Below, piece after piece: positions 3,599 through 59,959 of a DNA stretch of 64,000 nt. The notes beneath the pieces are model-generated. The model worked only from the letters and a program-made list of their open reading frames with translations, had not been told where the DNA came from and searched no databases. The DNA comes from Pristiophorus japonicus (Eukaryota), in the NCBI RefSeq assembly GCF_044704955.1, contig NC_092008.1, forward strand, positions 5,828,001 to 5,892,000. The letters are read 5' to 3'. Positions within the stretch are counted from its first letter, which is position 1; the number at the start of each line of letters is the position of its first letter. Position numbers and translations under genes: made by a program.

Positions 3599-4494
3599 CT
3601 AACTCAATGACGATTGTGATCCTGTATCGGGGAAAGTGCGGTCTCTCCAAATGCGTCACTCGCTACTTGGTGGCCATGGCAGCGGCGGATCTACTGGTTG
3701 TTATCACTGACCTGATATTGAGGCAGATTCCAATTGTTCATCGTCTGTATTTTGTGCAGCGAATCCCCGTGTGTAATATCCACGCCGTCCTGCTTTATGC
3801 AGCCACAGACTGTTCTGTCTGGTTCACCGTCACTTTCACCTTTGATCGATTCGTGGCAATTTGTTGCCAGAAGCTGAAAACTAAATATTGCACTGAGAAA
3901 ACCGCAGCTGTGGTTCTTGGAGCAGTGACTGTGCTGAGCTGTTTAAAGAACATTTTCTGGTACTTTATGTATTTACCTTGGTACAGGTTTGCCAATACAC
4001 CCTGGTTCTGTTACGTGAGTGTTCTTGTTATGATTTCACATTTGTGTGGAACACTCGAGCTTCTTCATTCTATTCTCACCCCTTGCATCCCATTTGTTCT
4101 GATTCTGCTCCTCAATGCTTTAACCATCAGACACATTTTACTGACCAGCAGAGTCCGCAGGAGACTCCGGGATCACAGCAGTGAGGTGATTGCCAGTGAC
4201 ATAGAGATGGAGCGACGAAGGAAATCCATCATTTTACTGCTCATTATTTCATGGAATTTCATTCTGTTATGGGCTGTGTTTATGTTGTTTTCTATTTGGA
4301 ACAGGTTATCGTATTTTGTTCTTGATATTTTCCATCTACCTGCTTACATGAAAGAAATAGGATTTATGCTCCAGCTCCTGAGTTGCTGCACAAACACTTG
4401 TATTTATGCCGTGACCCAGAATAAGTTCAGAGAGCAGTTGAAGAATGTGGTGAAATGTCCGTATCTCCGAATTGTTAAAATAATTAAATGGTGA
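3599..4494 (+). pseudogene. GPR139/GPR142-like class A GPCR, copy A: exon 2 only (exon 1 deleted); 295-aa ORF from internal ATG 3607 still open
   Basis: Acceptor cccttcctcacAG|CT at 3598/3599; motifs YLVAMAAADL, CSVWFTVTFTFDRFVAIC, RRKSIILL, LLSCCTNTCIY. The region carrying exon 1 in copies B and C is missing at ~2637. Confidence 0.85.
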
Positions 4495-4849
4495 GACTGA
4501 ATGTAGAAAATGCAGCATCAGAAATCAACATGATGTACGAAAAGGAGCGAAGCAGGAGAAGGCCATGGTGAATATCCACGGTTTCTCATGTAGAAAACAA
4601 AATTAACTCAATATAGATGACACTGCGGCAGAAAGGAAACGTTACCTGATGTGGGGACGTCGAGATTTAACACAATCACATATTACACAGACGTAGTTAG
4701 CACGGGTTGGCAGAATAGTATGATGTTACAAGGTCACAATTAACCTGATAAAATACACAACACACCCGATCCTTTCAGGGATTTCGATCTAGATAGCATG
4801 AATATTCAAGACGATAAGGTTCGGACATGCGCTGAAATAGTTAGGAGGA

Positions 4850-5745
4850 TTACATAGCACATAAGCAGGTAATTCGGGCCATCGTACATTTGCCATCTCT
4901 TTGAACGAGATATACAATTTTTCTCACTCAGCTGGTCTTGCCCCATAGTTTTGATAATTTTACCTGTCAAATATTAATCCAATTCCTTCGTGTCGGTTGG
5001 TACTGAAGCCGGATTATCCACCCTTTTAGTCTCGTCATTCACGATAATAATTCGAGGTGTACAAAAAACTCCGCATTTGCCCACTAGATTTCTTGTCAAG
5101 AATTAAAATCTGTGTCCGCTCGTTACCAAGCCTCCAGTTAGTGGAAAACATTTTCGTATAACTACTATGCCGATACCATTCATGATTAAATCTATCCAAA
5201 CCCTCTCGGACCTGTGAAGTATAGGTCCCCGAATTACTACAGCCCCTTTTAAATTGTGCCATTTAGCTTATATTACTTCTCCTCATTTGTACCGACAATA
5301 TGCTTCACTTTGCAATCCCCTGCTTTAAATGTGCACTGCCATGTTTCTGTGGAAGTCACTCCTCATGACTTCTGGTATGTTCCACTCGTTTTACTACATT
5401 CGCAACTTTGTGACATTTGCAAACTTTGCTATTGTGTCCTGAGTACTCAATTCCAGGACATTAATAAATATCCTCAACGAGCAGTGGTCCCAACAGCGCC
5501 ACCTAGCTGATAACATCGGGGACTTAACCGCTGTCCAAATCACAAAGTTCGCCATTATTCTCTGCTTTCTGTCACTCGGCGGATTTCGAATCTATGCAGA
5601 CACTGTCCCTTTAATGCCACGGGCTTCAATTTTGCCAGCAAATCTGCTATGCGGTACTTCATCAAGTGTCTTTTGAAAATTCGTCAAATTCGTCATGCAC
5701 GATTTGCCTTTGTCAAATTAGACTAGCATGAGCAGTTAAGACCAC
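4850..5745 (-). mobile_element. Old, highly degraded CR1-type LINE fragment
   Basis: The paralogous segment in unit C translates as FVKGKSCLTNLINLFDE (CR1 RT); also present at ~36000-36890 and ~60320-61230. Confidence 0.55.
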
Positions 5746-6228
5746 AAGTTTCTAACACCCAGGTGAATCCTTTGCAGGTGAAGAACTTTCAGTACCACTC
5801 GCAATGACACTGCAATTAAAGAGTTGTATCAATTATTTGACAACTAAATTGTATTAATCTGATGCCTCAATCCTGAAATTTGGGTTAAGCGTACGTACGA
5901 TTGACTATCTCACAGACCAAACATAATTGGCGACCGAATCAATACTGGGAATAATTAAGTTTTTCATTGTCTGATTTTTTGACTGCCATCTCAAGTCAGT
6001 CAGTCCCATACAGAGCAGATTCTGGAATATGGAGTATCTGGGCGAATAAAAAGATGCACATTCGACGTAGCATGGAGTGATAACTATGAGGGTTAGTAAT
6101 CTCACGGGAAAAAGAACCATGAGTGAGTTAAATTGGATCCTGGGTACCGGAAAAACCAAATTTCCTGTGTTACAAGAGATGGTTTTCAAGCCTGAGATTC
6201 TATCCAAATCTCATCAGCATCACAAAAA

Positions 6229-6505: not shown

Positions 6506-9500
6506 GAACATAAGAACATAAGAACATAAGAATTAGGAACAGGAGTAGGCCATCTAGCCCCTCGAGCCTGCTCCGCCATTCAACAAGATCATTGCTGATT
6601 TGGCCGTGGACTCAACTCCACTTACCCGCCCGCTCCCCATAACCCTTCATTCCCTTATTTGTTAAAAATCTATCTATCTGTGACTTGAATACATTCAATG
6701 AGCTAGCCTCAACTGCTTCCTTGGGCAGAGAATTCCACGAATTCACAACCCTCTGGGAGAAGATATTCCTTCTCAACTCGGTTTTAAAATGGCTCCCCCG
6801 TATTTTGAGGCTGTGCCCCCGAGTTCTAGTCTCCCCTACCAGTGGAAACAACCTCTCTGCCTCGATCTTGTCTATCCCTTTCATTATTTTAAATGTTTCT
6901 ATAAGATCACCCCTCATCCTTCTGAACTCAAACGAGTAAACACCCAGTCTACTCAATCTATCATCATAAGGTCACCCCCTCATCTCAGGAATCAACCTTG
7001 TGAATCGTCTCTGTCCTCCCTCCAAAGCCAGTATATCCTTCCTTAAGTAAGGTGACTAAAACTGCACGCAGTACTCCAGGTGCGGCCTTATCAATATCCA
7101 ATAGAGTTGGAGCAGGACATCCCTGCTTTTGTACTTCATCCCTCTCGCAATGAAGGCCAACATTCCATTCGCCTTCCTGATTACCTGCTGCAGCTGCAAA
7201 CTAACATTTTGGGATTCATGCACAAGGAACCCCTGGTCCCTGTGCACCTCAGCATGTTGCAATTTCTCCGCATTCATATAATATTCCCTTTTACTGTTGT
7301 TTCCCAAGGTTGATGACCTCACACTTTCCGACATAGTATTCCATCTGCCAAACCTTAACCCATTCACCTAACCTATCCAAATCTCTTTGCAGCCTCTTTG
7401 TGTCTTCTGCACAACCCGCTTTCCCACTAATCTTTGTGTCATCTGAAAATGTTGTGACACAACACTCTGTCCCCTCTTCCAGGTCATCTATGTATATTGT
7501 AAACAATTGTTGTCCCAGCACCGATCACTGTGGCACACCACTAACCACCGATTTCCAATCCGAAAAGGACCCATTTATCCCGACTCTCTGCTTTCTGATC
7601 GCCAGCCAATTCTCTATCCATGCTAATACTTTTCCTCTGACTCAGCGTACCTTTATCTTCTGCAGTAACCTTTTGTGTGGCACCTTATCGAATGCCTTTT
7701 GGAAATCTAAATACACCAGATCCATCGGTACACCTCTATCCACCATGCTCGTTATATCCTTAAATTATTCCAGCAAATTAGTTAAACATGATTTCCCCTT
7801 CATGAATCCATGCTGCGTCTACTTGATTGCACTATTCCTATCCAGATGTCCCGCTATTTCATCCTTCATGATAGTTGCAAGCATTTTTCCCACTACAGAT
7901 GTTAAACAAACCGGCCTATTGTTACCTGCCTTTTGTCTGCCCCCTTTTTTAAACAGAGGCGTTACATTAGCTGCTTGCCAATCCGCTGGTACCTCCCCAG
8001 CGTCCACAGAATTTTGGTACATTATAACAAATGCATCTGCTATAACTTCCGCCATCTCGTTTAATACCCTTGGATGCATTTCATCAGGATCAGGGGCCTT
8101 GTCTACCTTGAGTCCCATTAGCCTGTCCAGTAGAACCCCCCTAGTGATAGTGATTGTCTCAAGGTCCTCCCTTCCCACATTCCCGTGACCAGCAATTTTT
8201 GGTTTGGTTTTTGTGTCTTCCACTGTGAAGACCGAAGCAAAATAATTATTAAAGGTCTCAGCCATTTCCACATTTCACATTATTAAATCCCACTTCTCAT
8301 CTTCCAAGGGACCAACATTTACGATAGTCACTCTTTTCTGTTTCATATATCTGTAAAAGCTTTTACGATCTGTTTTTATGTTTTGCGCAAGTTTACCTTC
8401 GTAATCTATCTTTCCTTTCTTTATTGCTTTTTTAGTCATTCTTTGCTGTTGTTTAAAATTTTCCCAATCTTTTAGTTCCCCACTAACCTTGGCCACCTTC
8501 TCCGCATTGGTTTTTAATTTGATACTCTCCTTTATTTCCTTGGTTATCCACGACTGGTTATCCCTTCTCTTACCGCCCTTCCTTTTCACTGGAATATATT
8601 TTTGCTGCGTGCTATGAAAGAGCTCCTTGAAAGTCCTCCACTGTTCCTCAATTGTGCCACCGTTTAGTCTGTGTTTCCTGTCTACTTCAGCCAACTCTGC
8701 CCTCATCCCACTGTAGTCCCCTTTGTTTAAGTATATTATGCTCGTTTCTGCCACAATTTCCTCACCCTCAATCTGTATTACAAATTCAACCATACTGTGA
8801 TCACTCATTCGAAGAGGATCTTTTCATTGGAGATCGTTAATTTTCCTGTCTCATTAAACAGGACCAGATCTAAGATAGCTTGCTCCCTTGTAGGTTCTGT
8901 AACATACTGTTCTAAGAAACAATCCCGTATGCATTCTATGAATTACTCCTCCAGGCTACCCCATGCGATTTGATTTGACCAATCGATATGTAGGTTAAAA
9001 TCCCCCATGACTACTGCCATTCCTTTTTCACATGCGTCCATTATTCCCTTGATTATTGCCCGTCCCACCATGAAGTTATTATTTTTGGGCCTATAAACGA
9101 CGCCCTCCAGTGACCTTTTTCCCCTTACTATCTTTAATCTCCACCCACAATGATTCAACATTTTGTTCATTAGAGACAATATCGTCTCTCACAACTGTTC
9201 TGATATCATCCTTTATTAACAGAGCTGCCCCATCTCCTTTCCCTTCTTGTCTATCTTTCCAAATCATCAGATACCCCTGTATGTTTAATTCCCAGTCTTG
9301 GCCACCCTGCAACCATGTTTCTGTAATGGCCGCCAAATCATACCCATTTGTAATGATTTGTGCCATCAACTCATTTACTTTATTTCGAATTCTGCGTGCG
9401 TTTAGGTAGAGTGTTTTAATCCTAGTTTTTAAACGATGATTTTTAGTTTTGACCCCTCCTGCAGCCCCTTTATATTCAGTGGCCCCTTTTGTTTTTTGCC

Positions 9501-10438
9501 TTGGGTTTCTCTGCCCTCCATTTTTGCTCATCTCTTTTCTGTCTTTTGCTTTTGTCTCCTTTTTGTTTCCCTCTGTCTCCCTGCATTGGTCCCCATCCCC
9601 CTGCCATACCAATTTAACTCCTCCCCAACAGCACTAGCAAACACTCCCCTTAGGACATTGGTTCCGGTCCTGCCCAGGTGCAGACCGTCCGGTTTGTACT
9701 GGTCCCACCTCCCCCAGAACCGGTTCCAATGCCCCAGGAATTTGAATCCCTTCCTACTGCACCACTGCTCAAGCCACGTATTCTTCTGAGCTATCCTGCG
9801 ATTCCAACTCTGACTAGCACGTGGCACTGGTAGCAATCCCGAGATTACTATTTTTGAGGTCCTACGTTTTAATTTAGCTCCTAGCTCCTTAAATTCGTCT
9901 CGTAGGACCTCATCCCTTTTTTTACCTATATCGTTGGTACCAACGTGCACCACGACAACTGCCTGTTCACCCTCCCTTTTCAGAATGGCCTGCACCCGCT
10001 CCGAGACATCCTTGATCCTTGCACCAGGGAGGCAACATACCATCCTGGAGTCTCGGTTTCGGCCGCAGAAACGCCTATCTGTTCCCCTTACAATCGAACC
10101 CCTATCACTATCACTCTCCAACTCTTTTTCCTGCCTTCCTTTGCAGCAGAGCCAGCCACGTTTCCATAAACTTGGCTGCTGCTGCCCTCCCATGATGAGT
10201 CATCCCCCTCAACAGTACTCAAAACGGTGTATCTATTTTGCAGGGGGATGACCGCAGGGAACCCCTGCACTACCTTCCTTGCACTGCTCTTCCTGCTGGT
10301 CTTCCTTTCCCTAACTGGCTGTGGACCCTTCACCTGTGGTAAGACCAACTCGCTACACGTGCTTTTCACATCATTCTCAGCATCGTGGATGCTCCAGAGT
10401 GAATCCACCCTCAGCTCCAATTCCACAACGCGGACCGT
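6503..10438 (-). mobile_element. Near full-length CR1 LINE (ORF1 SGNH esterase + ORF2 APE/RT, frameshifted), inserted antisense into host CR1
   Basis: ORF1 motifs VHVGTND and DGLHL (9528-10193); EN motifs LYLNAR, ITETWL, MGDFN, SDH; RT motif FSDDTK; RPHLEYCVQF; (ATGTTCTT)n 3' tail at 6503-6535. Confidence 0.92.
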
Positions 10439-13400
10439 CAGGGTTACATCATGGCAGGAGAGCTTGGACACGTTTTATGTTCCTCCTGTACTATGTGGGA
10501 AATCAGGGACACTTCCGGTGTCGCTGATGATTACGTGTGCGCGAAGTGCATCCACGTGTAGCTCCTGACGCACTGCATTGCAGAACTGGAGCTGCGGGTT
10601 GATTAACTCTGGATCCACGACGCTGAGAATGATGTGATTAGCACGTTTTGTGAATTGGTCTTAATGCAGGTAAAGGGTACACAGCCAGATCGGGAATGGC
10701 TGATCAACAGGAAGAGCAGTACAAGGAAGGTAATGCACGTGTCCCCTGTGGTCATCCCCCTGCAAAACAGATACACGGCTTTGGTACTGTTGAGGGGGAT
10801 AACTCATCAGGGGAGGGAAGCAGCAGCCAAGGTCATGGCACCGTGGGCGGCACTGCTGCAGAGGAGAGCAGGAAAAAGAGTGGGAGAGCTATAGTGACAG
10901 GGTCTTTAATTGTAAAGGGAATAGATAGATGTTTCTGCGGCTGCAACCGAGACTCTAGGATGGTATGCTGCCTCCCTGCAGCAAGGTTCAAGGATGTCTC
11001 GGCGCTGGTGCAGGGCATTCTGAAAAGTGAGGGTGAACAGCCAGTTGCTGTGATGCATATAGGTACCAACGATATAGGTTAAAAGTGGGATGAGGTCGTA
11101 CAAGACGAATTTAGGGAGCTCCGAGCTAAATTAAAATATAGGACATCAAAAGTAGTAATCTCAGGATTGCCACCAATGCCACGTACTAGTCAGAGTAGGA
11201 ATCGCAGGACAGCTCAGATGAATACGTGGCTTGAGGAGTGGTGCAAAAGGGAGGGATTCAAATTCCTGCGACATTGGAACTGGCTCTGGGGTAGGTGGGT
11301 CCAATATAAGCCAGCCGGTCTGCACCTGGGCAGGACCAAAACCAATGTCCGAGGGGAAGTGTTTCATAATGCACTTTTGCGAGGAGTTAAACTGATATGG
11401 CAGGGGGATGGGAACTTATGCAAGGAGACAGGGGGATGTAGAATGGGGGCAGAAGCAATAGATAGAAAGAAGAAAAGTGAAAGTGGAGGGCAGAGAAACC
11501 AAAGGCAAAAAGCACAAATTGCCGCATTATTAGCAAAATTCTAAAGGGGCAAAGTGTGTTAGAAAAACAAGCCTGAAGGCTCTGTGCCTCAATGCAAGGA
11601 TTATTCGGAATAAGGTGGACGAATTAACTGTGCAAATAGCAGTAAACGGGTATGATGTAATTGGAATCATGGAGACATAGCTCCAGGGTGACCAAGGCTG
11701 GGAACTCAACATCCAGGGGTATTCAACATTTAGGAAGGATAGACAGAAAGGAAAAGGAGTTGGAGTTGCATTGCTGTTTAAAGAGGAAATTAATGCAATA
11801 GTAAGAAAGGACATTAGCTTGGATGATGTGATGTGGAATCGGTGTGGGTGGAGCTACGGAATACCAAGGGGCAGAAAACGCTCGTGGGATTTGTGTGCAG
11901 ACCACCAAACAGTAGTAGTGAGGTTGGGGACAGCATCAAGCAAGAAATTAGGGATGCATGGAAAAAAGGTACAGCAATTATCATGGGTGACTTTAATCTA
12001 CATATTGATTCGGCTAACCAAACTGGTAGCAATGCGGTGGAGGAGGATTTCCTGGACTGTATTAGGGATGGTTTTCTAGACCAATATGTCGAGGAACCAA
12101 CGAGGGAGCTGGCCATCCTCGATTGGGTGATGTGTAATGAGAAAGGACTAATTAGCAATCTTCTTGTGCGAGGCACCTTGGGGAAGAGTGACCATAATAT
12201 GTAGAATTCTTTATTGAGATGGGGAGTCCTGAACTTAAGGAAAGGTAACTTCGATGGTCTGAGGCGTGAACTGGCTAGAATAGACTGGCACATGATACTT
12301 AACGGGTTGACGGTGGATACGCAATGGCAAACATTTAAAGATCACATGGATGTACTTTAGCAATAAAACGGAGAAGGTGGCTCAACCGTGGCTAACAAGG
12401 GGAATTAAGGATAGTATTAAATCCAAGGAAAAGGCATGGAATTTGGCCAGAAAAAGCAATACACAAGAGGACTGGGAGAAATTTAGAATTCAGCAGAGGA
12501 GGACAGAGGGGGAAAATAGAGTACGAGAAGAAGCTTGCATGGAACATAAAAGCTGACTGCAGGAAGTTCGACAGATATGTGAAGAGAAAAATATTCGTGA
12601 AGACAAACGTAGATCCCTTGCAATCGGATTCAGGTCAATTTATAATGGGGAACAAAGAAATGGCAGACCAATTGAACAAACACTTTGGTTATGTCTTCAC
12701 GAAGATAGACACAAATAAGCTTCCAGAAGTACCAGGGGACCGAGTGTCTAGTGACAAGGAGGAACTGAAGGATCTCTTTATTCGGTGGGAAATTGTGCTA
12801 GGGAAATTGATGGGATTGAAGGCAGATAAATCCCAGGGGCCTGATAGTCTGCATCCCAGAATACCTAAGGAAGTGGCCTGAGAAATAGTGGATGCATTGG
12901 TGATCATTCCCAACAGTCTATCGACTCTGGATCAGTTCCTATGGACTGAATGGTAGAGAATGTTACACCACTTTTTCAAAAGGGAGGGAGAGAGAAAGCG
13001 GGTAATTATAGATCGGTTAGCCTGACATCAGTACTGCGGAAAATGTTGGAATACATTTTTAAGGATGAAATAGAAGTGCATTTGGAAAACAGTGACAGGA
13101 TCGGTCCAAGTCAGCACGGATTTATGAAGGTGAAATCATGCTTGACAAATCTTCTGGAATTTTTTGAGGATGTAACGAGTAAAGTGGACAAGGGAGAGCC
13201 AGAGGATGTGGTGTATTTGGATTTTAAAAGGCTTTTGACAAGGTCCCACACAAGAGATTGGTGAGCAAAATCAAAGTACATGGTATTGGGGATAATATGC
13301 TGACTTGGATAGAGAACTGGTTGGCAGACACGAAGCAGAGATTCTGGATAAACGGCTCCTTTTCAGAATGGCAGGCTGTGTCTCGTGGAGTGCCAATGGG

Positions 13401-15630: not shown

Positions 15631-15634
15631 CGCC

Positions 15635-16969: not shown

Positions 16970-18290
16970 AAGTTGTCAGGATCGGTACAGGAGATGCCTG
17001 GCTCTATGTAAATGCTTTCTGGGTCTGTGCAAATGCTACCTGGGTCTGCGCAAATGTTGCCCGGTTCGATGTTGGAGTGCACTGACTGTGTATAGGAGCT
17101 ATCTATGATCCAGTTCGCTGTGTCAGGGCTGGAGCTGACTGCGTCGGTGCAAGAGTTGCCTGCGACTATGCAGCAGCATATCCTGTCTGCGAAGGAGTGC
17201 CTGCTTCGCTGTGGAATGTCTCGGTCTGTGCTGGAGCTCACTGGGTCAGTGTGGGATCTTCCTGGATCTCTGTTGAAGCTTTAGATTCAGTGTCGTTGCT
17301 GTCGTTGTTTGAAGTGAGCTGTCTGGAAGCTGTTTAGGAACATATAGGAACTTTTTGGTCATTTCTATAAACTGTCTGCGCTAGGGTAGGAACTGTTTAT
17401 ATCAGTGTAGGACTACTTGGGACTGCATATATGCTCCCTGGGCCATGATAGGAGCTGTCTAGTTCTAACCTGGACTGAATGGATCTGTGCAGCAACAGCC
17501 TGTGTCTGTGAAAGGAGCTTCTTCCTTCCATGTCGAAGCTGTCTGTGGCTGTGTTGGAGCTGTATTGAACTGCGTAGGAGTTGTCTCGGGCAGCCATGGG
17601 ATGTTTGGTTCTGTGTAGGAGATCCTGGGTCTGTGCAGAAGCAGTCTGCGACTGTGTCGGATCTTTGGGGGCACGCAGAGGAGTGTTTGGGTCTGTGTAG
17701 TTGATCTCTGGGTCTGTGTAGCAACAGTACCTGCCTGCATGGGAGTTGCCTGGCTCTGTGTAGGAGCGTCCTGGGTCTGTTGGGTACTGAGTAGGAGCAT
17801 TCTAATTCTGTGTAGCGACTGTGTGAGACTGCGTGGGAGCTGTCTGAGCCTGTTTAGTCGCAGTGTCTTTTGGAGCTGTCTGGCTCTGCGTAAGAGCTTT
17901 CTCAATCTGGATATTCTGAGTCTGGGTCTGTAAAATACATTCTAGGTCTGTGTAGGCAGAGTCTGGATCTGTGTAGGGACAGTCTGGGTCTGTGTAGGCA
18001 GAGTCTGGGTCAGTGTAGATACAGTCTGCGTCTGTGTGGGCAGAGGCTGGGTCAGTGTAGGCACAATCTGGATCTGTGTAGGCAGAGTCTGAGTCAGTGT
18101 AGGCCCAGTCTGGGTCTGTGTAGGAACTGCCTGTTTCTGTGTCGGCAAAGTCTGGGTCAGTTAGGCAAAATCTGAGTCTGTGGTAGGAATATACTGCTTA
18201 TCTGATTCTGATTATTTCCGCCCTCCATTGGTCTGTGTAGCAGTTGTCTGGCTCGATTCTGGAACTGCTTTGATCTTTATCGATCGGTAA
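16970..18290. repeat. ~21-bp minisatellite (CTGGGTCTGTGTAGGCAGAGT), degenerate flanks, clean core 17940-18180
   Basis: Tandem units visible; they give 7-aa periodic ORFs (PTQTQT...). Confidence 0.85.
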
Positions 18291-20489: not shown

Positions 20490-21122
20490 TGACTTTGTTA
20501 GTCGAGGCATGGAACACAAGAGCAAGGACGTTATTCTCGAATATGTAAAACATTGTTTAGGCTGCAACTGGAGTACTGTGTGCGGTTCTAGTCACCAGAT
20601 TACAGGAATGATGTGATTGCACTGGAAAGAGTGCAGAGGAGATTGACAAGAATATTGCCTGTACTGGAGAATTTTGGCCATGGGCAAAGATTGGAGATGC
20701 TAGGTGTGTTTCCTTTGTAATAGAGTACACTGAGGGAAGACCGGATTGAGGTATATAAAGTTATGAAGGGCCTGGTTAGAGAGGATAGGAAGGACCTCTT
20801 TCCCTTGACAGAGCGGTGGTCCTGCAAGGGGCACAGATTTAACGTTACTGGGGGGAGATTTAGAGGAGATATGAGGGGAAATTTCTTCAGCCAGTGGGTG
20901 GTAGTGTCTGGAACGCACTGCCTGAAAGAATGGTAGAGGCATAAAGCATCAGCACATTTTAAAAAACATTTGGATGTGCACCTGAAGTGCCATAACGTAG
21001 ATCGCTAGGGACCAGAGTTCGAAGGTGGCATTAGGCTAGATAGCTCTTTTTCGGCCGGTGTGGGAACTATATGCTGAAAAAGCCTCTTTCTTGATGTAAA
21101 TTTCTATGATTCTATGATTCTG
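20490..21122 (+). mobile_element. CR1 LINE 3' fragment
   Basis: CTGGAGTACTGTGTG (LEYCV) and CTGGAAAGAGTGCAGAGGAGA (LERVQRR); TTTCTATGATTCTATGATTC tail; paralog at ~48505-49110. Confidence 0.8.
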
Positions 21123-21124
21123 TA

Positions 21125-21385
21125 CACTACTGCACCATCTGCTACAGATACTTCCTCCTTTGGCCGCTGTCCAGTATGGCACCATCTGGTAATGCTGCTG
21201 CCTCCTCTGGGCGCAATACAGTACTGCAACACCTGATACTGCTGCAGCATCCTCTGGCCACTGTGCAGTATTGCATCACCTGATACAGCTGCTCCCTCCT
21301 TCGGGCACAATGCAGTACTGCAACACTTGACATTGCTGCACCATCCTCTGGCCGTTGCACAGTATTGCAACACCTGCTTCTTCCA
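21125..21385. repeat. ~38-bp tandem repeat (CAGTACTGCAACACCTGATACTGCTGC.CCATCCTCTGGCC)
   Basis: About 6 degenerate units; a related unit at ~20370-20432 lies on the other side of the CR1 fragment; paralog at 49110-49295. Confidence 0.7.
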
Positions 21386-26000: not shown

Positions 26001-26622
26001 TTCCCAGGGACACACACCGAGAGAGACATCATCAGCTCGGTGAAAGATGCACTTTGGTCTTGCCGAAAGTTGCTGGTCTTCCAGAGCAAGGAGATGTCCA
26101 TGTCTGCGTGTTGCAGACTGGTGCAATCCAAGGTCCAGGAGTACGTGCTGAGGGACGCACTGAAAATTGGTGCAGTCGCCGCAAAGGCACGGTGGGTAAA
26201 AGCCGCAGTTTAAAGCCCTTCTGCCAGGGTAAACCCAGGACCTGGAATCAGTATAAAAATCCTCTCGGACTGTACTTGTACACTTTTTGCATACAGAGAT
26301 CGCCATAATCTGAAAACACCTCTGTCGTGCCATGTATAATGCAAGTTCTGTTCAGTAATGTATCTTGAAAAGAAATGTAACTGTACCCTCACCCATTCCT
26401 GTGCCGTATGTAATGTAATTTTATAAATGTATTACAATGTATCCTGGATTGTACTGAATTGTACCTTGAAATGTGAAGCAAGCAAATGTATTGAACAGAA
26501 CTGCCTTCAGCATCCAAATGTTTAGTATGGAATTGCTGGCCGCATCGAAATGTACTGAACTGCTTTCCAATGTATCTTGCACATTTTTATATAAAAAAAG
26601 TGTATTTTGAAATTTTAAAAAA
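23080..26622 (+). mobile_element. Tx1/L1-clade LINE, 5'-truncated ORF2 (APE, RT, CCHC finger), unique to unit A
   Basis: LINVYAP, SRIDFLFV, SDHC, WKLN; NWRPISLLSVDYKIL, GVRQGCPLS, YMDE; RCPRVSCGADETVTHLLQDC; AT-rich 3' UTR and A-tail at ~26590-26622. Confidence 0.9.
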
Positions 26623-32154: not shown

Positions 32155-32260
32155 AATGTGTTTGTTCATTGACTGTAATTGATATCAGACCCCATAGATT
32201 AATTAAATGTGTTTGTTCAGTGAATGTAATTAATGTGCCTCTCCATGGACCATAATTGTC
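32155..32260 (+). promoter_or_regulatory. Candidate proximal promoter: duplicated AATGTGTTTGTTCA.TGA.TGTAATT.AT (forkhead-like + homeodomain TAATT)
   Basis: 29-bp direct repeat at 32155-32183 and 32206-32234, 150-230 bp upstream of the ATG; conserved in unit C (~56330-56411). Confidence 0.4.
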
Positions 32261-32384
32261 TCACTGGAGATATTGTCTCTTCTATTAATGCGGCAAAAAT
32301 CTCAATGTGTTGTACCACTGTTTCGCAGAGAGCATCAACTCCGGCACTCACAGGGATCAGCGGCTCTATAACGAGAGGAGAAGA

Positions 32385-32478
32385 ATGTATTTAAGAATCA
32401 GTGAGTTTACAATACTAGGGTTCGTTTTTGAGATACAAAAGATATACTACCCGCTTCTGGCTGTGGTCGGAGTCCCTG
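32385..32478 (+). CDS. GPR139/GPR142-like GPCR copy B, coding exon 1 (MYLRISEFTILGFVFEIQKIYYPLLAVVGVP)
   Basis: ATG at 32385; 94 nt ending CCTG|GTAAGT (phase 1). YY..L...G.P start of TM1 as in GPR139; joins exon 2 as GVP-A-NSM. Confidence 0.88.
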
Positions 32479-34045
32479 GTAAGTCACTGTGTCCAGCTAC
32501 TCATGCTGTAGATCATGTTTAACTGTGTGACTGCATTATCTCACTGAGGTCACAAAATCCAGAAATTAATTGACACCACATATTCTCTCTGGATTTGGGG
32601 CTGACAATGCTCTGTGATTCTCGAATGTGACTGTGTCACATTCACCCGTTGACTGATCTGAGTGCAGTGAATAGAAAATATCACCTTTTGATCTTTTCTC
32701 CATGTGATAGGGTCTGATAGAGAACTGACTCGTTTGTTAATTTCCAGCACAAGCAATCTCACTGGATGATTCTCTTAGACTCTGTGTCTGTATAGCGCAT
32801 TCTATTCAAACGGACAGATGTGTTCATGGCTTTCCAGAATCGATCACCGTGCACTGGGAAAAGTGAATTATACCAAGTGGGGGAAACCAGTCGTGGCAGA
32901 AAGCTCAGAAACACACCGTGAATGTTCGATAATGTCCAAGTTGATTCAGATCGAGTCTGATGACCCCCTTTGTACAATCTCTTTCCCAGCAAAAGTCAGT
33001 GTTCTGGGAGGTTAGGATGGGATTACAAATTAATTCGTGATTGAATGTGTCTCCAGTTATAGATCAATGGATTGATTTCCGATCGTATCTGTGAACAAGG
33101 AATCTCCCACCGCGTGTCCATCTAGCACAGTTCAGCAGAATCTCTCAATGAGATCTCTCCTGACTCTGCCCCATCTCTTGCTCTGCTTCCGTGCAACTGA
33201 TTCTTGTTGATTGGCAGGGAGTACAATGAATGGTGAGATCACTTTATTGATGCAAATTCACAACGTCAATTGGAGTTCCATTAAATCTCAACCACAGATA
33301 CAAAACTCTGGGTTAGCGCTGATGTAGTTGGGTTCGGATATTAAATTAAATCTCAACCACCGATATAGAATTACGGGTAAACAAATCATCTAATTCGATG
33401 CAGAGATTTTAACACACCACAAGGTGTTTAGTTTAATCTATGTTATATTAAACACATTCACAAAAATGTTCACACAGCAGCAGACAGTTTGAACATTACG
33501 CCACCTTTTAAATCGAGCGCTTAGAATTAGCCTCCCGTTATACACCACCACCCCTTGCCTTCACATTAATGCGGAGTGTATAAGGCTGGACAGGTTCCAC
33601 ATCGCCCATTTTACACCAGCACAGATAGATATAAACAGACAGAGCATTTGGCGAGTGAGGGAAACGTCAGGTGCGGGCCAACCTCAAAACACGACTGGAC
33701 ATAGTATTAGAACATTTATAGTCGAGGTTATGTGGAACCATTTGGAGTATCGGTGAGTTGAAAGTCGTCTAAAATGTTATTTAATAATGTGTTATTTTCA
33801 CTGGATGTAAAATGTCAGATTTAAGTGCATGTGGAAGCATTGCTCTGTTGTATTACATGCTTTCACACCAGATAAATATTTTTCCCTTCCAAACCTTAAA
33901 CCATATCTTTTTGTGCCGTGATACCGCGTAGGAATGCCTTAAGCATTCGGCTCAGAGGGAATCACAGCCCAGTTTACACACAATATCCAAACTCGCTTTG
34001 TTCCTGTCTATTTTGTTCAGGCTCTTCGGGTCTATCTCAAGGGTC

Positions 34046-34260
34046 AATGACTCACTCTCCGCCGGTCACTGACTTACTGTCGCCTGGTCACTGACTCACT
34101 CTCCCTGGTTGCTGATTCACTTTTCCCCCGGTCACTGACTCACTCTCCCCGGTCAGTGACTCACTCTCCCTGGTTACTGATTCACTCTCCCCCAGTCACT
34201 GAATCACCCTCCCTGGTCACTGATTCATTCTCCCCCAGTCACTGACTCACACTCACCGGA
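34046..34260. repeat. ~21-bp TGACTCA minisatellite, ~10 units, intron of GPCR copy B
   Basis: Tandem CACTGACTCACTCTCCCCGGT units. Confidence 0.92.
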
Positions 34261-34745
34261 AGCACTCCTGTGATTTCAGCCGGGGTGCTCCGAATCATTC
34301 GCTGTATTACGGCCCATAATGACCCACCCAGACATTTCAGGCACAGTCCAATTACCCAAACTAACTCCTGATTGGGTGCAGACTGGGAACAGAATGCCAG
34401 AATGTCGATGGTTCCAGGGTTGCTGCAGCAGCAGGCAATGATTGACAAACCTGGAGATGAGGGCTGATGCCACTTCAGTATTGATCCTCTGATTAGATAG
34501 CACATTACTCTTGCAATATTAAATCCCATTCCCGGGTTCAGTTTAAAATTCATTGCTGATTAGTGAGTTGCACAGTTTGCATTGTACATCCTGTCTCCAG
34601 CAGAAAGCCCTTTTCGCAGGAACATTATTAAATTCCATCACTGGAAGCAGCAATACATGTAGAAATGTTACCCCAATCCCATCAACCCGCTGAATTCACT
34701 TTCATCCTGTTGTGTTAATTTCCTGTTCATTTTCCTTCCGCACAG

Positions 34746-35641
34746 CTAACTCAATGACGATTGTGATCCTGTCTCGGGGAAAGTGCGGTCTCTCCAAATG
34801 TGTCACTTGCTATTTGGTGGCCATGGCAGCGGCGGATCTACTGGTCGTTATCACTGACCTGATATTGAGGCAAATTCCAATTGCTCATCGTCTAGATTTT
34901 GTGCGGGGAATCCCCGTGTGCAATATCCACGCCGTCTTACTTTATGCAGCCACAGACTGTTCTGTCTGGTTCACAGTCACTTTCACCTTTGATCGATTCG
35001 TGGCAGTTTGTTGCCAGAAGCTGAAAACGAAATATTGCACTGAGAACACCGCAGCTCTGGTTCTTGGGACAGTGACTGTGTTAAGCTGTTTAAAGAATAT
35101 TTTCTGGTACTTTATATATTTACCTTGGTACTCGTTTACCAATGCCCCCTGGTTCTGTTACGTGAGTGTTCTTGTTATGGTTTCACATTTGTGGGCAACA
35201 CTCGAGCTTCTTCATTCTATTCTAACCCCTTGCATCCCATTCGTTCTGATTCTGCTACTCAATGCTTTAACCATCAGATATATTTTAGTGGCCAGCAGAG
35301 CCCGCAGGAGACTCCGGGATCACAGCAGCGAGGGTAATCTCAGTGACATAGAGATGGAGAGACGAAGGAAATCCATCATTTTACTGCTCATTATTTCAGG
35401 GAATTTCATTCTGCTATGGGCTGTGTTTATGTTGTTTTCTATTTGGAACCGGTTGCGGTATTTAGGTTATGATACTCTACACCTACCTTCTTACATAAAA
35501 GAAATAGGATTCATGCTCCAGCTCCTGAGTTGCTGCACAAACACTTGTATTTATGCCGTGACCCAGAAAAAGTTCAGAGAACAGTTGAAGAATGTGGTGA
35601 AATGTCCGTTTCTCCGAATTGTTAAAATCATTAAATGGTGA
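34746..35641 (+). CDS. GPR139/GPR142-like (probable G-protein coupled receptor 139) copy B, coding exon 2; spliced product 329 aa, intact 7TM
   Basis: Acceptor ttccttccgcacAG|CT; open frame to TGA at 35639-35641; motifs AAADL (TM2), DRF (TM3), PCIPF..LLN (TM5), RRKS..LLW (TM6), LLSCCTNTCIY..KFR (TM7/helix 8). Confidence 0.92.
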
Positions 35642-45009: not shown

Positions 45010-46290
45010 CAGGATCTGTACAGGAAATGCATGGCTCTGTGTAAATTCTACCTGGGTCTGTGCAAATGTTGCCCGGGTCGATGTTGCAGCGCACTTGCTG
45101 TGGATAGGAGCAATCTATGTTGCAGCTCGCTGTGTCAGGGCTGGAGCTGACTGCGTCGGTGCAAGTGTTGCCTGCGACTATGCAGCAGCTGATCCTTTCT
45201 GCGTAGGAGCGTCTGCTTCGCTGTGGAATGTCTTGGTCTGAGCTGGAGCTCACTGGGTCAGTGTGGGATCTTTCTGGATCTCTGTTGAAGCTTTGGATTC
45301 AGTGTCGTTGCTGTCGTTGTCTGTGAAGTGAGCTGTCTGGGTCTCCCAAAGAGGCTGTTCAGGAACATGTAGGAACTGCCTGGCCCTTTTTATAAACTGT
45401 CTGCGCTCGGGTTGGAACTGTTTATTTCAGTGTAGAACCACTTGGGACTGCATATATGCACCTTGGGTCATGCTAGGAGCTGTCTAGTTCTAACATGGAT
45501 CGAATGGATCTGTGTAGCAACTGACGGTGTCTGTGAAATAAGCTGCTTCCTTCCATGTAGGAGCTGTCTGTGGCTGTGTTGGAGCTGCATTGACCTGTGT
45601 AGGAGTTGTTTGTGGTTGCCTATGGGATGTTTGGTTCTGTGTAGGTGGTGCTGAGTCTGTGCAGAAGCAGTCTGTGACTGTCGGATCTTTAGGGGCCCGC
45701 AGAGGAGTGTTTGGGTCTGTGTAGTTGATCTCTGGGTCGGTGTCGGAAAAGTACCTGCCTGCATGGGAGTTCGTTGGCTCTGTGTAGGAGCGTCCTGGGT
45801 CTGTTGGATCTGAGTAGGAGCATTCTAATTGTGTGCAGCGACTGTCTGAGACTGCGTAGGAGCTGTTTGAGCCTCTGTAGTCGCAGTACCTTTTGGAGTT
45901 CTCTGGCTCTGTGTAAATGTTGTCTCAATCTGGGTAGGCTCAATCTGCCTCTGTGTAGGCAGAGTCTGGATCTGTGTCGGCACAGTCTGGGTCTGTGTTG
46001 GCAGAGTCTGGATCAGTGTATCGACAGTCTGGGTCTGTGTAGGCAGAGTCTAGGTCAGTGTAGACAAAGTTTGGGTCTGTGTAGGCAGAGTCTGGTTCAG
46101 TGTAGGCACAGTCTGGGTCTGTGTAGGAACTGCCTGTCTCTGTGTAGGCAGAGTCTGGGTCAGTTTGTCAAAGTCTGAGTCTGTGTGGGAACATTCTGGT
46201 TGTCTGAATCTGATTGTTTCCACCCTCCCTTGGTCTGTGTAGCAGTTGTCTGGCTCTACTCCGGAAATGCTTTGATCTTTATCGATTGGT
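45010..46290. repeat. ~21-bp CTGGGTCTGTGTAGGCAGAGT minisatellite (unit B)
   Basis: Paralog of 16970-18290. Confidence 0.85.
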
Positions 46291-51595: not shown

Positions 51596-51626
51596 ACCCC
51601 ATTCCCTGCGCTTCCACCTCGCCGGC

Positions 51627-52535
51627 TCTGTATCTAACCCATGCTGTACCTGCCCCTGGAGTGTTTGATATGACAGTGTAGCTGGAGATTTACTCTATAT
51701 CTAAACCTCTATACTTGCCCTGGGAGTGTGTGATGGGGCAGTATAGAGCGACGTTTACTCTGTATCTAACCTCCTGAACCTGCCCTGGGAGTGTGTGACG
51801 GGACAGTGTAGAGGTAGCTTTATTGTGCATCTAACCCCAGCACCTGCCCTGGGAAAGTATGGTGGGGCAGTGTCGAGGGCGAATTACTCTGTATTTAACC
51901 TCGTGCTGTACCTGCCGCAAGAGTGTTTGATGCAACATTATGGAGTGAGCTTTACTCTCCATCTAATGCCCTGCACCTGCCCTGAGAGTGTCTGATTGGG
52001 CAGTGTGTAGGGAGATTTACTCTGTATCTATCCCGTGCTGCACCTGCTCTGGGAGTGTTTGATGGGACAGTGGTGCGGCAGCTTTACTCTGTATCTAACC
52101 CCTTGCTATACCTGCCCTGCGAGTGTTTGATGGGACAGTGCAGAGGGAACTTTACTCTATATCTAACCACGTGCTGTCCCTGCCCTGGGAGTGTTTTATG
52201 GGACAGTGCGGAGGCAGCTTTACTCTGTCTAACCCCCTGCACCTGTCCTGGGAGTGTGTGATGGGGCAATGTCGATTGAGATTTACTCTGTATCTAACCC
52301 GGTGGTGCTCCTGCCCTGGTTTTGTTTGATGGGACAGTGTAGAGTGAGCTTTACTCTATCTCTAACCCTTTACTGTACCTTCCCTGGGAGTGTTTGATGG
52401 GACAGTGTATCGGGAGCATTTCTCTGTATTGAGCCCCCTGTAACTGTCCTGAGAGTATTTGATGGGACAGTGTTGATGGAGCTTTATTCTGTATCTTACC
52501 TGTGCTATACCTGCCCTGGAAATGTTTGATGGGTG
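51627..52535. repeat. ~66-68 bp satellite (CTTTACTCTGTATCTAACCC.GTGCTGTACCTGCCCTGGGAGTGTTTGATGGGACAGTGTAGAGGGAG), ~13 units
   Basis: Clear tandem units; absent at the homologous position in unit A (~27016). Confidence 0.92.
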
Positions 52536-54512: not shown

Positions 54513-54597
54513 TGTTGTGTATGCATGCCCATTCGTAGATGCAAGTTTCACCAGTTGCGATGGGTATTGAGCATGTTTGTTCAGCCATGAACTCATT

Positions 54598-54669
54598 GAA
54601 TGGCGGTGCAGGCTAGAAGGGCCGAATGGCCTACTCCTGCACCTATTTTCTATATTCTATGTTTCTATG
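54598..54669 (+). mobile_element. CR1 3' terminus stub at unit B/C junction
   Basis: GAAGGGCCGAATGGCCTACTCCTGCACCTATTTTCTAT..TTCTATGTTTCTATG. Confidence 0.75.
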
Positions 54670-56566
54670 ACAGAGGCCTAAGACCAGTCGCTGCTGTTGC
54701 ATGGACTTGTCAACATTTCCGTTTTTTGGGGTATATCCCAGGGTTTTCGTTTCTCTCTCAATGCAGAAGATTTACGGAGGTTAACAGACAGGTGGACATG
54801 CGTATGTGAGTAGGAAATATGAGGAATAGATCGCATCTTCTACCGAAAGGGCAGGAATAATATTATTCTCAGTCGTACTTTGTAAATTGCTGCTTAAATA
54901 TTGTAAGGTATTAATTCTTGCTTATGCTAAATAAAGCCATATAATTAGAACGAATATGGTGTCAATGTTGAACAATTGAACAGACAGACAACGACAACAA
55001 TGGGGGGTTCTTGAAGTAAAGGTCGGCCTTCTCTTTTACTGGTCAAATCCTGACGTGATGGTGGACCTTATTTAAATGGGCAGTCCTATTGGTGATGAAG
55101 GGCCTTCTCGTTAACTGGTCAAAAACTGAGGTGATGGTGGACCTTATTTAAACGGGCAGTCAGAGTGGTGATCAACGGCATCCTCTTTAACTGGATGAGC
55201 CTTGAGTTGATGATGGGATGTCTCCTTAAACGGGAGAGACTTGAGTTGATGAAGGACATTTTCTTTCACCGGGCAGTTCCTGAGGTGATGGTGAGCCTTC
55301 TTTGCCAGGAAGGCTTTGATGTGATGGTGGCTCTGTTTTTAAATGTGCAGTTAACATGTGCACCAGGAAGTGAAGTTCTGATGTCAGAGTTTGTATCAAT
55401 TGGATTCACTATAGCAGAAGGTTTGCCTCATTGACACGATGAGCTCGGATTGGACATGAGGGGAAATATTTGAAAATCTAGCGAAGAATCATAATTCAAG
55501 GCTAGAGCAGGAGATGTTTTCCTTGATGGGGATGGAGAAGGAGATGAGCCAAAAACAGGTGAATAGATAATTTCAATATTTTTGACAAATAATTACATCA
55601 GTTCCTCGGAGTTGATTTTGGAGGTGTGTGTAGCGGGGCAGGGCAGAGGTGTTAAACAATATGGTTGTTAGTTTTGAATGGAAGCCGGGGTCTATGTTTG
55701 CTTTCCTTGATAATATTGGATATTGGATCTGCTTAGGGTGAAAGATGCATGATCTGATAGGCCTGTATTTGAAGAGCCAGCTTCCACATTAAATGAGTAA
55801 ACTAGATGTGGGCCAGATACGATTAAATAATGGCCTTGGACCTATGGGAGCTACAATGGGTCTTATTCCTGAGAAAATAACCAGTGTAGGAGAGGTCAGA
55901 GTTTTACCGGGGACAAGGACATCAAAACTGTCAGTGAGTGAGTGGTGGAGCTGATCGACAGCTGCAGAACTACCTTGGAAAATGGAGAAGTTAGTCAGAC
56001 TGCAGTGCCCAAAAGTAGTAAGTGAATTGTGGAGAGATTTTTCACATGCGTAGATGCAGCTAGAAGTGGTGTTGGAATGCAATAGGGGCTGTGGAAGGTG
56101 ATCGATTCACGAAGCTGCCGGAGATGGCCTTGTATGTGACCGCAAAAAGCGAGCCAACTGAGTTGGCAAGCTTGAAGAAATCAAGTTGACAATCAATGTG
56201 CTCAGACTGTTGATTTAACATTTTTGTTCTTGCTCATTACTAAAGTACTTTTACAACAATGGGTCATTCTACCGTACATCCATAAGTGCATTTAGTGGTG
56301 CGAGGGGTGTTGGTTTGAAAGGGGTTAACTGAATGTGTTTGTTCATTGACTGTAATTGATATATACCCCATAGATTAATTAAATGTGTTTGTTCGGTGAC
56401 TGTAATTAATGTACCTCTCCATGGACCATAATTGTATTACTGGAGAGGTTATCTCTTCTATTAATACGGTGAACATCTCAATGTGTTGTACCACAGTACC
56501 ACAGTCTCGCAGCGAGCATCAACTCCGGCATTCACAGCAATCAGCGGCTCTAACGAGAGGAGAAGA

Positions 56567-56660
56567 ATGTATTTAAGAATCAGTGAGTTTACAATACTAG
56601 GGTTCGTTTTTGAGATACAAAAGATATACTAACCGCTTCTGGCTGTGGTCGGAGTCCCTG
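56567..56660 (+). pseudogene. GPR139/GPR142-like GPCR copy C, exon 1 with premature stop (Tyr22 TAC>TAA at 56630-56632)
   Basis: Identical to copy B exon 1 except for this one base; donor CCTG|GTAAGT is intact. Confidence 0.85.
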
Positions 56661-58231
56661 GTAAGTCACTGTGTCCAGCTCTCATGTTGTAGATCATGTT
56701 TAACTGTGTGACTGCATTACCTCATTGAGGTCAGAATATCCAGAAATTAATTGACACCACATATTCTCTCTGGATGTGGGGCTGACAATGCTCTGTGATT
56801 CCCGAATGTGACGGTGTCACATTCACCCGTTGACTGATCTGAGTGCAGTGAATAGAAAATATCACCTTTTCATCTTTTGTCCATGTGATAGGGTCTGACA
56901 GAGAACTGACTCGTTTGCTAATTTCTAGCATAAGCAATCTCACTGGATGATTCTCTTAGCGTCTGTGTTTGTAGAGTGCATTCTATTCAATCGGACAGAT
57001 GTGTTCATGGGTTTCCAGAATCGATCACCGTGCACTGGGAACAGTGAATTATACCAAGTGGGGAAACCAGTCGTGGCAGAAAGCTCAGAAACACACCGTG
57101 AATGTTCGATAATGTCCATCTTGATCCAGATCCAGTCTGATGACCCCCTTTGTACAATCTCTTTCCCAGCATAAGTCAGTGTTCTGGGAGGTTAGGATGG
57201 GATTACAAATTAATTCGTGATTGAATGTGTCTCCCATTATAGATCAATGGATTGATTTCCGATCATATCTGTGAAGAAGGAATCCCCACCCCGTGTCCAT
57301 CAAGCACAGTTCAGGAGAATCTCTCAATGAGACCTCTTCTGACTCTGTCCCATCTCTTGCTCTGCTTCCGTGCAACTGATTCTTGTTGATTGGCAGGGAG
57401 TACAATGAATGGTGAAATCACTTTATTGATGCAAATTCACCGCGTCAATTGGAGTTCCATCAAATCTCAACCACAGATAAAGAACTCTGGATTAGCGCTG
57501 ACCTAGTTGGATTCGGATATTTAATTAAATCTCAACCACAGATGTAGAACTCCGGGTAAACAAATCATCTAATTGGATGCAGAGATTTTAACACACCACA
57601 AGGTGCTAAATTTAATCTCTGTTATATTAAACACAATCACAAAAATGTCTAATCACACAGCAGTGGACAGTTTGATCTTTGTGCGATTTTTTAAATGGAG
57701 CGATTAGAATTAGCCCCCGGTTATACACCACCGCCCATTGCCTTCACATTAATGCGGGATGTAGAAGGCTGGATTGGTTCCACTTTGCCCATTTTACACC
57801 AGCACAGATAGATATAAATCGACTGAGCATCAGCAGTGAGAAGGAAACGTCAGGTGCGGGCCATCCTCAAAACAGGACTGGTCACAGCATTAGAACATTT
57901 ATAGTCGAGATTATTTGAAACCTTTTGGAGGATCGGTGAGTTGAAAGTCATCTAAAATGTTATTTAATAATGTGTTATTTTCACGGGATGTAATATGTCA
58001 GATTTAAGTGCATGTGGAAGTATTGCTCTGTTTTATGACATGCTTTCACACCAGATATATTTTTCTCTTCCTCACCTCAATCAAATGATCCTTTTTGTGC
58101 CCTGATACGGCGTGGGATTGCCCTAAGCATTCGGCTCAGAGGGAATCACAGACGAGTTTAAACACAATACCCAAAGTCGCTTTGCTCCCGTATATTTTGT
58201 TCATGCTCTTCCAGGGTCTATCTCAAGGGTC

Positions 58232-58595
58232 AATGACTCACTCTCCGCCGGTCACTGACTCACTCTCCCCTGGTCACTGACTCACTCTCCCCGGTCACGG
58301 ACTCACTCTCCCTGGTTACTGATTCACTCACCCCCGGTCAGTAACTCACTCTCCCCGAGTCACTGACTCACCCCCCCCCTGGTTACTGACTCCCTCTCCC
58401 CGGTCACTGACTCACTCTCACTGGTCACTCACTCACTCTCCTTTGGTTACTGACTCACTCTCCTTTGTTGCTGATTCACTGTCCCCTTGTCACTGACTCA
58501 CTGTCCCCGGTCACTGACTCACTCTCGCCGGTCAGTGACTCACTCTCACTGGTTACTGATTCATTCTCCCCCGGTCACTTACTCACTCTCACCGG
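58232..58595. repeat. ~21-bp TGACTCA minisatellite, ~17 units, intron of GPCR copy C
   Basis: Tandem units visible. Confidence 0.92.
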
Positions 58596-59063
58596 ACGCA
58601 CTCCTGCAATTTCTGCCGCTGAATTACGGCCCATAATGACTTACCAAGACATTTCAGCCACAGTCCAATTACCCAAACTAACTCCTGATTGGGTGCAGAC
58701 TGGGAACAGAATCCCAGAAGGTCGATGGTTCCAGGGTTCCTGCAGCAGTAGGCAATGATTTAACAAACCTGGAGATGAGGGCGAATGCCACTTCAATATT
58801 GATCCTCTGATTAGATGGCACATTACTCTTGCAATATTAAATCCCATGCCCCGGTTCCAGTTACTATTCTTTGCTGATTGGTGAGTTGCACAGTTTGCAT
58901 TGTACATCCAGTCTCAAGCAAAAAGCCCTTTCTCTGGAACATTATTAAATTCCATCACTGGACGCAGTAATAAATGTAGAAATTTTACCCCAACAACCTT
59001 CAACCCGCTGAATTCACTTTCGTCCTGTTATGTTAATTTCCTTTTGATGTCCCTTCCTCACAG

Positions 59064-59959
59064 CTAACTCAATGACGATTGTGATCCTGTCTCGGGGAAA
59101 GTGTGGTCTCTCCAAATGCGTCACTCGCTACTTGGTGGCCATGGCAGCGGCGGATCTAATGGTTGTTATCACTGACCTGATATTGAGGCAGATTCCAATT
59201 GTTCATCGTCTGTATTTTGTGCGAGAAATCCGCATGTGTAATATCCACGCCGTCCTGCTTTATGTAGCCACAGACTGTTCTGTCTGGTTCACCGTCACTT
59301 TCACCTTTGAGCGATTCGTGGCAATTTGTTGCCAGAAGCTGAAAACTAAATATTGCACTGAGAAAACCGCGGCTGTCGTTCTTGGAGCAGCGACTGTGCT
59401 GAGCTGTTTAACGAACATTTTCTGGTACTTTATGTATTTACCTTGGTACAGGTTTGCCAATACCCCCTGGTTCTGTTACGTGAGTGTTCTTGTTATGATT
59501 TCACGTTTGTGGGGAACACTCGAGCTTCTTCATTCTATTCTCACCCCTTGCATCCCATTTGTTCTGATTCTGCTCCTCAATGCTTTAACCATCAGACATA
59601 TTTTAGTGGCCAGCAGAGTCCGCAGGAGACTACAGAATCACAGCAGCGAGGGGATTGCCAGTGACATAGCGATGGAGCGACGAAGGAAATCCATTATTTT
59701 ACTGCTTATTATTTCAGGGAATTTCGTTCTGTTATGGGCTGTGTTTATGTTGTTTTCTATTTGGAACCGGTTGTTATATTTACTTTATGCTACTATACAT
59801 CTACCTGCTTACATGAAAGAAATAGGATTTATGCTCCAGCTCCTGAGTTGCTGCACAAGCACTTGTATTTATGCCGTGACCCAGAATAAGTTCAGAGAGC
59901 AGTTGAAGAATGTGGTGAAATGTCCGTATCTCCGAATTGTTAAAATAATTAAATGGTGA
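59064..59959 (+). CDS. GPR139/GPR142-like GPCR copy C, exon 2 (open; 295 aa from ATG 59072); gene probably pseudogenised by the exon-1 stop
   Basis: Acceptor cccttcctcacAG|CT; same TM motifs, with ERF in place of DRF and STCIY in place of NTCIY. Confidence 0.8.

Follow-up and report, generated by a model that had tools for sequence, protein, structure and literature searches.

GPR139, which appears to be the closest characterised relative of the receptors described here, responds to aromatic amino acids and peptides (PMC5430874, PMC8557429). Residues reported to be important in GPR139 are F3x33, H5x43, W6x48 and N7x38 (PMC5430874) as well as R6x51 (PMC12775434), and the protostome receptors for MIP/sex peptide, proctolin, FMRFamide and myosuppressin have been described as the sister group of GPR139/142 (PMC8557429). 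We analyzed a 64,000-nt stretch of the Pristiophorus japonicus genome (assembly GCF_044704955.1, contig NC_092008.1, positions 5,828,001 to 5,892,000 of the forward strand; hereafter the window), in which a sequence-only reading had recognized three tandem GPR139/GPR142-like receptor genes, here called copies A, B and C. We find that they belong to a very large chondrichthyan family of class A G-protein-coupled receptors (GPCRs) within a third branch of the GPR139/GPR142 group, and that the subfamilies differ in the ligand pocket and have one common G-protein-facing surface and one promoter. The family probably works as a chemosensory repertoire.

Copy B is 26–29% identical to GPR139/GPR142 proteins (26–27% to GPR142), and human GPR139 (PDB 7VUG) was its best solved match both in sequence (E 2.1e-7) and in fold (rank 1, 26% identity). 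The family has in common with GPR139 1) a phase-1 intron in transmembrane helix 1 (TM1), 2) Asn5.58 and 3) the absence of Pro7.50, which is no departure since GPR139 and GPR142 carry Phe there; together with the solved matches, the intron and Asn5.58 place it within the wider GPR139/GPR142 group. The local subfamily also shares an aromatic residue at 3.33, His5x43 and Trp6.48. In contrast, the shark proteins lack Arg6.51, Pro6.50, Asn7x38 and Glu3.32, keep Cys3.25 and a cysteine in extracellular loop 2 (ECL2) that GPR139 lacks, have Asp3.37 (35/43 family-wide) and are encoded by about a thousand copies, whereas the true GPR139 orthologue is a single separate gene. By language-model features the family is also close to the protostome receptors named above (Srw-related), which differ in being neuropeptide receptors of protostomes; the Srw Pfam gave no match to the window proteins.

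The three genes and their duplicated units

The window proteins are class A (rhodopsin-like) GPCRs. All three copies match Pfam 7tm_1 (PF00001) above the cut-off, the local copies have seven helices, D2.50, DR3.50, W6.48 and N7.49/Y7.53, and the predicted structure of a database paralog 95% identical to copy B has seven transmembrane helices with a mean pLDDT of 91. LLWAVF in TM6 and NTCIY in TM7 are present as had been read (STCIY in copy C), and so is an N-terminus without a glycosylation sequon, found in none of 30 intact copies. Exon 2 is 896 nt long in each copy, with an AG acceptor directly 5' and 91.6–95.1% DNA identity; for copy B, a database protein under the name of P. japonicus matches it at 100% identity. 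Spliced from two exons, the first ending in a phase-1 GT donor after 'GVP', copy B encodes an intact receptor of 329 aa. A spliced contig in one of the four sequencing runs examined (runs that are contigs from other organisms, its RNA origin being only guessed) has a gap of exactly 2,267 nt, equal to the predicted copy B intron. An intronless gene starting at the exon-2 Met was ruled out by this contig and by the finding of exon 1 in 40/40 close loci. Among 40 distant loci, exon 1 was located in 19 and the AG acceptor stood at the same place in 38.

The copies lie on the same strand at the spacing previously noted, their stop codons being 31,147 nt (A/B) and 24,318 nt (B/C) apart, and each has its own duplicated unit, spacers and retroelement remnants included (84–96% identity). 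The window array would grow and decay through unequal crossing-over of these 24–31-kb units. Copy A follows the B unit as far as B position 31664, where the next sequence is the intronic minisatellite; this jump means that some 2.4 kb with the promoter and exon 1 are gone. A hidden exon 1 for copy A was rejected, since the 16 kb that separate the preceding copy from the window gave no exon-1 match. The deletion endpoint falls at the intronic minisatellite. Copy C has a TAA at codon 22 (Tyr22*, position 56630), and since the same nonsense codon is found in a neighbouring copy 97.5% identical over 4.5 kb, the dead gene itself must have been duplicated. The earlier account of one intact and two differently disabled genes thus holds, with the amendment that the lesion of copy C is not its own. 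Copy B has a twin (99.6% identity over 4.6 kb).

Size, taxonomic range and tree position of the family

The tandem array of three is real but is part of a far larger one, comprising 49 copies at ≥82% identity over 5.62–8.63 Mb of the 12.4-Mb contig, 27 on the + strand and 22 on the – strand. On the + strand (24 neighbours and the three window copies) 15/27 are intact and 12/27 broken, which agrees with the birth-and-death evolution and pseudogenization proposed from the window; on the – strand, 13 of the 14 copies examined among 22 are intact. Broken copies are under-counted, since the best-scoring copies were favoured. Separate copies share identical nonsense codons, and twins stand ~0.5 Mb apart, which points to duplication of multi-gene blocks or to unmerged haplotypes.

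When the same genome was searched at the protein level, 3,878 first-look candidates emerged; 133 of them were scored, and none of these fell below 68% identity. An exact seven-codon pattern had at least 892 matches genome-wide (1 in the reversed control), so that the copies are anything but few, and a second motif had 605 (0 in the reversed control). In the range where both lists are complete the overlap was 58/95, giving a union of ~1,130 and a capture-recapture estimate of 1,040–1,460, counts that take in pseudogenes and perhaps unmerged haplotypes. By this two-motif overlap the family would have about 1,000–1,500 members in this shark genome. The NCD3G domain of class C receptors had 58 matches in the genome, 37 of them clustered on contig C6; judged by the clustering and one first exon, this cluster is probably of V2R type. 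At ~1,000 genes, the family would outnumber the V2R-type genes of this shark some twenty-fold.

In the protein database 2,328/4,375 candidates passed E 0.001, and the 120 matches listed, almost all annotated as 'probable GPR139', belong to sharks and a skate. Distant representatives (36–68% identity; organism looked up for 30) came from catsharks, bamboo sharks, whale shark, skates, stingray, electric ray and Callorhinchus. The presence of the family in sharks, rays and Callorhinchus implies that it predates the shark-chimaera split, and the lineage-specific repertoire suggested earlier is not specific to one species: the family is old and chondrichthyan-wide (sharks, skates, rays and chimaera). 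Database models from Heptranchias with a duplicated receptor part are probably chimeric predictions across tandem copies.

The true GPR139 is one gene on contig C15 (WAPR in TM6, 96% to ray GPR139), and the true GPR142 one gene on another contig. In a careful tree of 32 rows, matched in its outcome by a quick tree of 76 rows, support for the family branch itself is 88/90, the family groups with a salamander gene (XP_069092602.1) at 96/93, and both group with a conserved gene (XP_005988539.1) and a gene on contig C7 at 100/97; GPR139 and GPR142 form a separate clade (100/100). Since the root rests on three unnamed, long-branched outgroup rows, the exact sister relation is less sure. A clade of the family with GPR139 was rejected (AU (approximately unbiased) test, p 2.5e-80), so the genes do not nest with the canonical GPR139; orthology also fails by residues, Arg6.51 of WAPR, Asn7x38 and Glu3.32 not being present. 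A single clade of the family, GPR139 and GPR142 was likewise rejected (AU p 0.0011), and orthology to GPR142, which belongs to the same receptor group, is rejected by the tree and by the true GPR142 elsewhere in the genome. The label GPR139/GPR142-like is therefore right for the wider group but not for the lineage, which is separate and has non-mammalian genes as its closest kin. OR, TAAR, V1R, V2R, T1R, T2R, FPR and MRGPR, which were left out of the tree, were rejected as families for the window genes, GPR139 being the best solved match in both sequence and fold.

Among bony vertebrates the closest relative is the salamander gene, which falls into one 90% cluster from three genera. Named records of the conserved sister gene come from sharks, fishes, coelacanth, amphibians, turtles and squamates, and no mammal or bird is named among the 120 matches listed of 145, many rows being nameless. 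Both share Cys3.25 and the ECL2 cysteine with the family but look single- or low-copy and have a conserved pocket, that of the conserved gene including Arg6.51, Asp7.36 and Asp3.29. Thus, two further unnamed vertebrate genes are revealed under the GPR139 label. The conserved gene, although labelled 'probable GPR139', is distinct, and two chimeric annotations suggest that TMEM183A adjoins it. Locus C7:215368360-215369214, a long-branched member of the group in this genome, is weakly joined to the conserved gene.

A shared promoter and subfamily-specific pockets

Subfamilies at 43–70% protein identity share a promoter layout of ~77 nt with fixed spacing, in the order TGTTT(G/A)TTCA, a TAA(C/T)TA-like element, TAATTG with a quasi-palindrome, and a TATA-like box. 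The first element, loosely defined, anchors 18/20 promoters; in seven held-out loci (three of them close to training loci) it was present in 6/7 (0/7 and 2/7 in the controls) and the composite in 2/7 (0 and 0 in the controls). The full pattern had 259 matches genome-wide (13 in the control), and 10/12 hand-picked ones stand 5' of a family gene. In 16 promoter types, two of which are chance matches, the third element reads TAATTG, two bases, TC(A/T)C-TG-G(A/G)G(A/G). These predicted sites resemble in geometry the Lhx2/Ebf olfactory composite of mouse, in which the enhancer probe is TAATTG-A-TCTC-CA-AGGA and the Ebf site of OMP is TCCC-TG-GGGA (PMC5608512).

For the pocket, residues were numbered by alignment with GPR139. 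At 3x33, 5x43, 6x48, 7x38 and 6x51 the local subfamily has Tyr, His, Trp, Phe and Phe. Across 28 distinct intact local sequences the listed positions show little or no variation, with Phe6.51, Phe7.39 and Leu3.32 in 28/28; because of this invariance, the local array adds copies and loop variation rather than new pocket chemistry. Entropy was compared over 21 pocket and 20 intracellular positions and the core: i) in 42 family representatives (mean identity 46%) it was 2.71 bits for the pocket, 1.75 for the core and 0.65 for the intracellular face; ii) in 94 orthologues of the conserved sister gene (61%), 0.71, 1.21 and 0.56; and iii) in 106 close family members (74%), 0.42, 0.82 and 0.16. Since these sets differ in divergence, the measure that counts is the pocket/core ratio, which is 1.55 for the representatives versus 0.59 for the sister orthologues and 0.51 for the close members. 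In these alignments the pocket is fixed within each subfamily and different between subfamilies, with a conserved intracellular face. The remodelled pocket claimed earlier is thus found as a difference between subfamilies, but in the local one three of the four GPR139 activation residues (Tyr3.33, His5x43 and Trp6.48) are kept or conservatively changed.

Pairwise pN/pS (the ratio of nonsynonymous to synonymous differences) among the 28 local sequences was 0.47, or 0.63 with transitions weighted four-fold, and was higher in the extracellular than in the intracellular half (0.72 and 0.33; 10/5,000 permutations). The intact local copies are thus under purifying selection that is weaker outside than inside. 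ECL3 reached 1.79 against overall pS; since the 378 pairs are non-independent, neither this value nor that of the outer half proves positive selection. For the pocket, which is invariant in the local array, positive selection was rejected there.

These data bear on the possibility that a few receptors for internal signals (neuropeptide, hormone or metabolite) were amplified by segmental duplication within a large, repeat-rich genome, most copies being redundant. The local array does show much drift, in that dead genes have been copied and the pocket is uniform, 20/351 intact pairs differ at ≤10 bases, and 12/27 + strand copies are broken. More tandem duplicates have been reported in larger batoid genomes (bioRxiv 10.1101/2025.06.08.657570), and the protostome relatives are neuropeptide receptors (PMC8557429). 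However, the pocket varies far more than the core between subfamilies, unlike the single-copy control, many deep subfamilies have been kept in sharks, skates, rays and a chimaera, the local copies are under purifying selection and the promoter has been kept across subfamilies. Genomic drift as the whole explanation is therefore unlikely.

The fast change of ECL3 and ECL1 over a fixed deep pocket would also fit large or pathogen-derived ligands, as in an innate-immune or barrier repertoire like the formyl-peptide or MRGPR receptors, sensing microbial or parasite peptides in leukocytes, mast-like cells or skin. The intronic minisatellite of the local subfamily, with 1–28 AP-1-like TGA(C/G)TCA sites per locus in 40 close loci, points the same way. 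However, this array is nearly missing (0–2 sites) in 27 loci of other subfamilies, and 11 promoters showed no excess of the leukocyte-type patterns (ETS, IRF, NF-kB, octamer), which makes an immune role quite improbable.

Proposed chemosensory function

The large clustered family with its pseudogenes resembles chemoreceptor repertoires, as does the combination of variable pocket and conserved intracellular face, seen between subfamilies but not within the local one. With OR, TAAR, V1R/ORA, V2R, T1R and T2R the family shares clustered birth-and-death evolution, a variable pocket, a conserved intracellular face and a shared promoter; it differs in the TM1 intron of its coding region, and none of these families was among its best sequence or fold matches. 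It also lies outside the six chemoreceptor families given in the accessible part of PMC13113109.

From the observed gene structure, family size, tree position, pattern of variation and shared promoter, a conditional picture of cell type, ligands, G protein and transcription factors can be drawn. Different pockets with one signalling surface and one promoter suggest that receptors of many specificities converge on a single cell type. As the site of activity we would put olfactory sensory neurons first, though at somewhat below an even chance; scattered chemosensory cells of gut, gill, mouth or skin come next and are rather doubtful. The ligands would likely be water-borne amino acids, their derivatives or short peptides, since the family descends from a group activated by aromatic residues, and the kept Cys3.25-ECL2 pair with variable outer loops might allow peptides. 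In its fullest form, the proposal is tentative: that this is a further major olfactory receptor family of cartilaginous fishes, which arose independently out of a GPR139-related gene apparently absent from mammals and is driven by an Lhx2/Ebf-like promoter.

Several observations weigh against this interpretation. 1) The pocket is invariant across the 28 local copies, and since many of these are near-identical, drift or unmerged haplotypes may account for much of the copy number. 2) TAATTG alone is not enriched in the held-out promoters (3/7, with 3/7 and 3/7 in the controls), and the strict Ebf consensus was found in 0/11 promoters. 3) The same promoter letters would also fit forkhead, ISL1 and NKX2 sites, a combination typical of endocrine sensory cells. 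4) The spacer of the shark element is one base longer than that of the mouse probe, for which a two-base insertion impairs binding and spacing matters (PMC5608512). 5) V2Rs are described as the main shark olfactory family (PMC11979771), yet no match to the promoter patterns was found among the V2R-type clusters of C6, and the only V2R-type promoter that was read (one gene) does not follow the family pattern. 6) The 50 most specific catshark brain-and-olfactory genes in the accessible part of PMC11979771 include no GPCR; they include no V2R either.

A reproductive or other non-sensory repertoire, active in sperm, oviducal gland or rectal gland, was also considered. Such shifts occur in sharks, testis or rectal gland being sites of enrichment for some catshark V2Rs (PMC11979771). 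No sequence feature of the family points toward such use, however, and the shared promoter resembles neuronal or sensory-epithelial types, so that we regard this as the least probable of the readings considered.

Within the olfactory interpretation, the family could have been missed because pipelines label every copy 'probable GPR139'. A literature search, with most subscription journals outside its reach, found no description of it; the 12 whale-shark supplementary files searched, out of 24, held no match, and it is not mentioned in the accessible parts of PMC12294341 or PMC13113109. The family is real and apparently undescribed, although the tandem clusters labelled in preprint 10.1101/2025.06.08.657570 could name it. 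The olfactory receptor repertoires of sharks are said to be small (PMC11979771) and their GPCRs relatively scarce (PMC8455134), a picture that ~1,000 receptors with a variable pocket and one promoter contradict. Should the family prove sensory, it could account for the good sense of smell of sharks despite their few known receptors.

Table 1. Positions of gene parts, promoters and intronic repeats of the three receptor copies, numbered from the first base of the window
Feature	Position	Strand	Remarks
Copy A deletion junction	2633..2637	+	B-31664 equivalent joined to minisatellite
Copy A intronic minisatellite	2637..3131	+	21-bp, 23 units, 13 TGA(C/G)TCA sites
Copy A exon 2	3599..4494	+	open frame, orphaned; promoter and exon 1 deleted
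Copy B promoter	32159..32290	+	TGTTTGTTCA at 32159 and 32210, a TAATTA element, TATA-like box at ~32282
Copy B promoter, TAATTG and quasi-palindrome	32253..32270	+	part of the copy B promoter
Copy B exon 1	32385..32478	+	31 codons and one base, phase-1 GT donor
Copy B intron	32479..34745	+	2,267 nt
Copy B intronic minisatellite	34042..34259	+	21-bp, 10 units, 5 TGA(C/G)TCA sites
Copy B exon 2	34746..35641	+	intact 329-aa GPCR with exon 1
Copy C promoter	56336..56465	+	changed quasi-palindrome at 56429
Copy C exon 1	56567..56660	+	nonsense codon 22 at 56630
Copy C intronic minisatellite	58228..58595	+	21-bp, 17 units, 9 TGA(C/G)TCA sites
Copy C exon 2	59064..59959	+	open frame

Other features of the window include a 3.3-kb imperfect inverted repeat (75%) at 8831–12161, consisting of two opposed retroelement copies with a GDSL-esterase-like open reading frame, and a decayed long interspersed nuclear element (LINE) at 23092–26213 with endonuclease and reverse-transcriptase frames, present only in the A-B spacer. 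Further tandem repeats, with unit lengths of 21, 47, 68 and 76 bp, were found at 1857–1998, 17919–18187, 21120–21376, 30888–31028, 45928–46199, 51626–52533 and 55024–55194, and the 76-bp one is located ~1.4 kb 5' of exon 1 in each unit.

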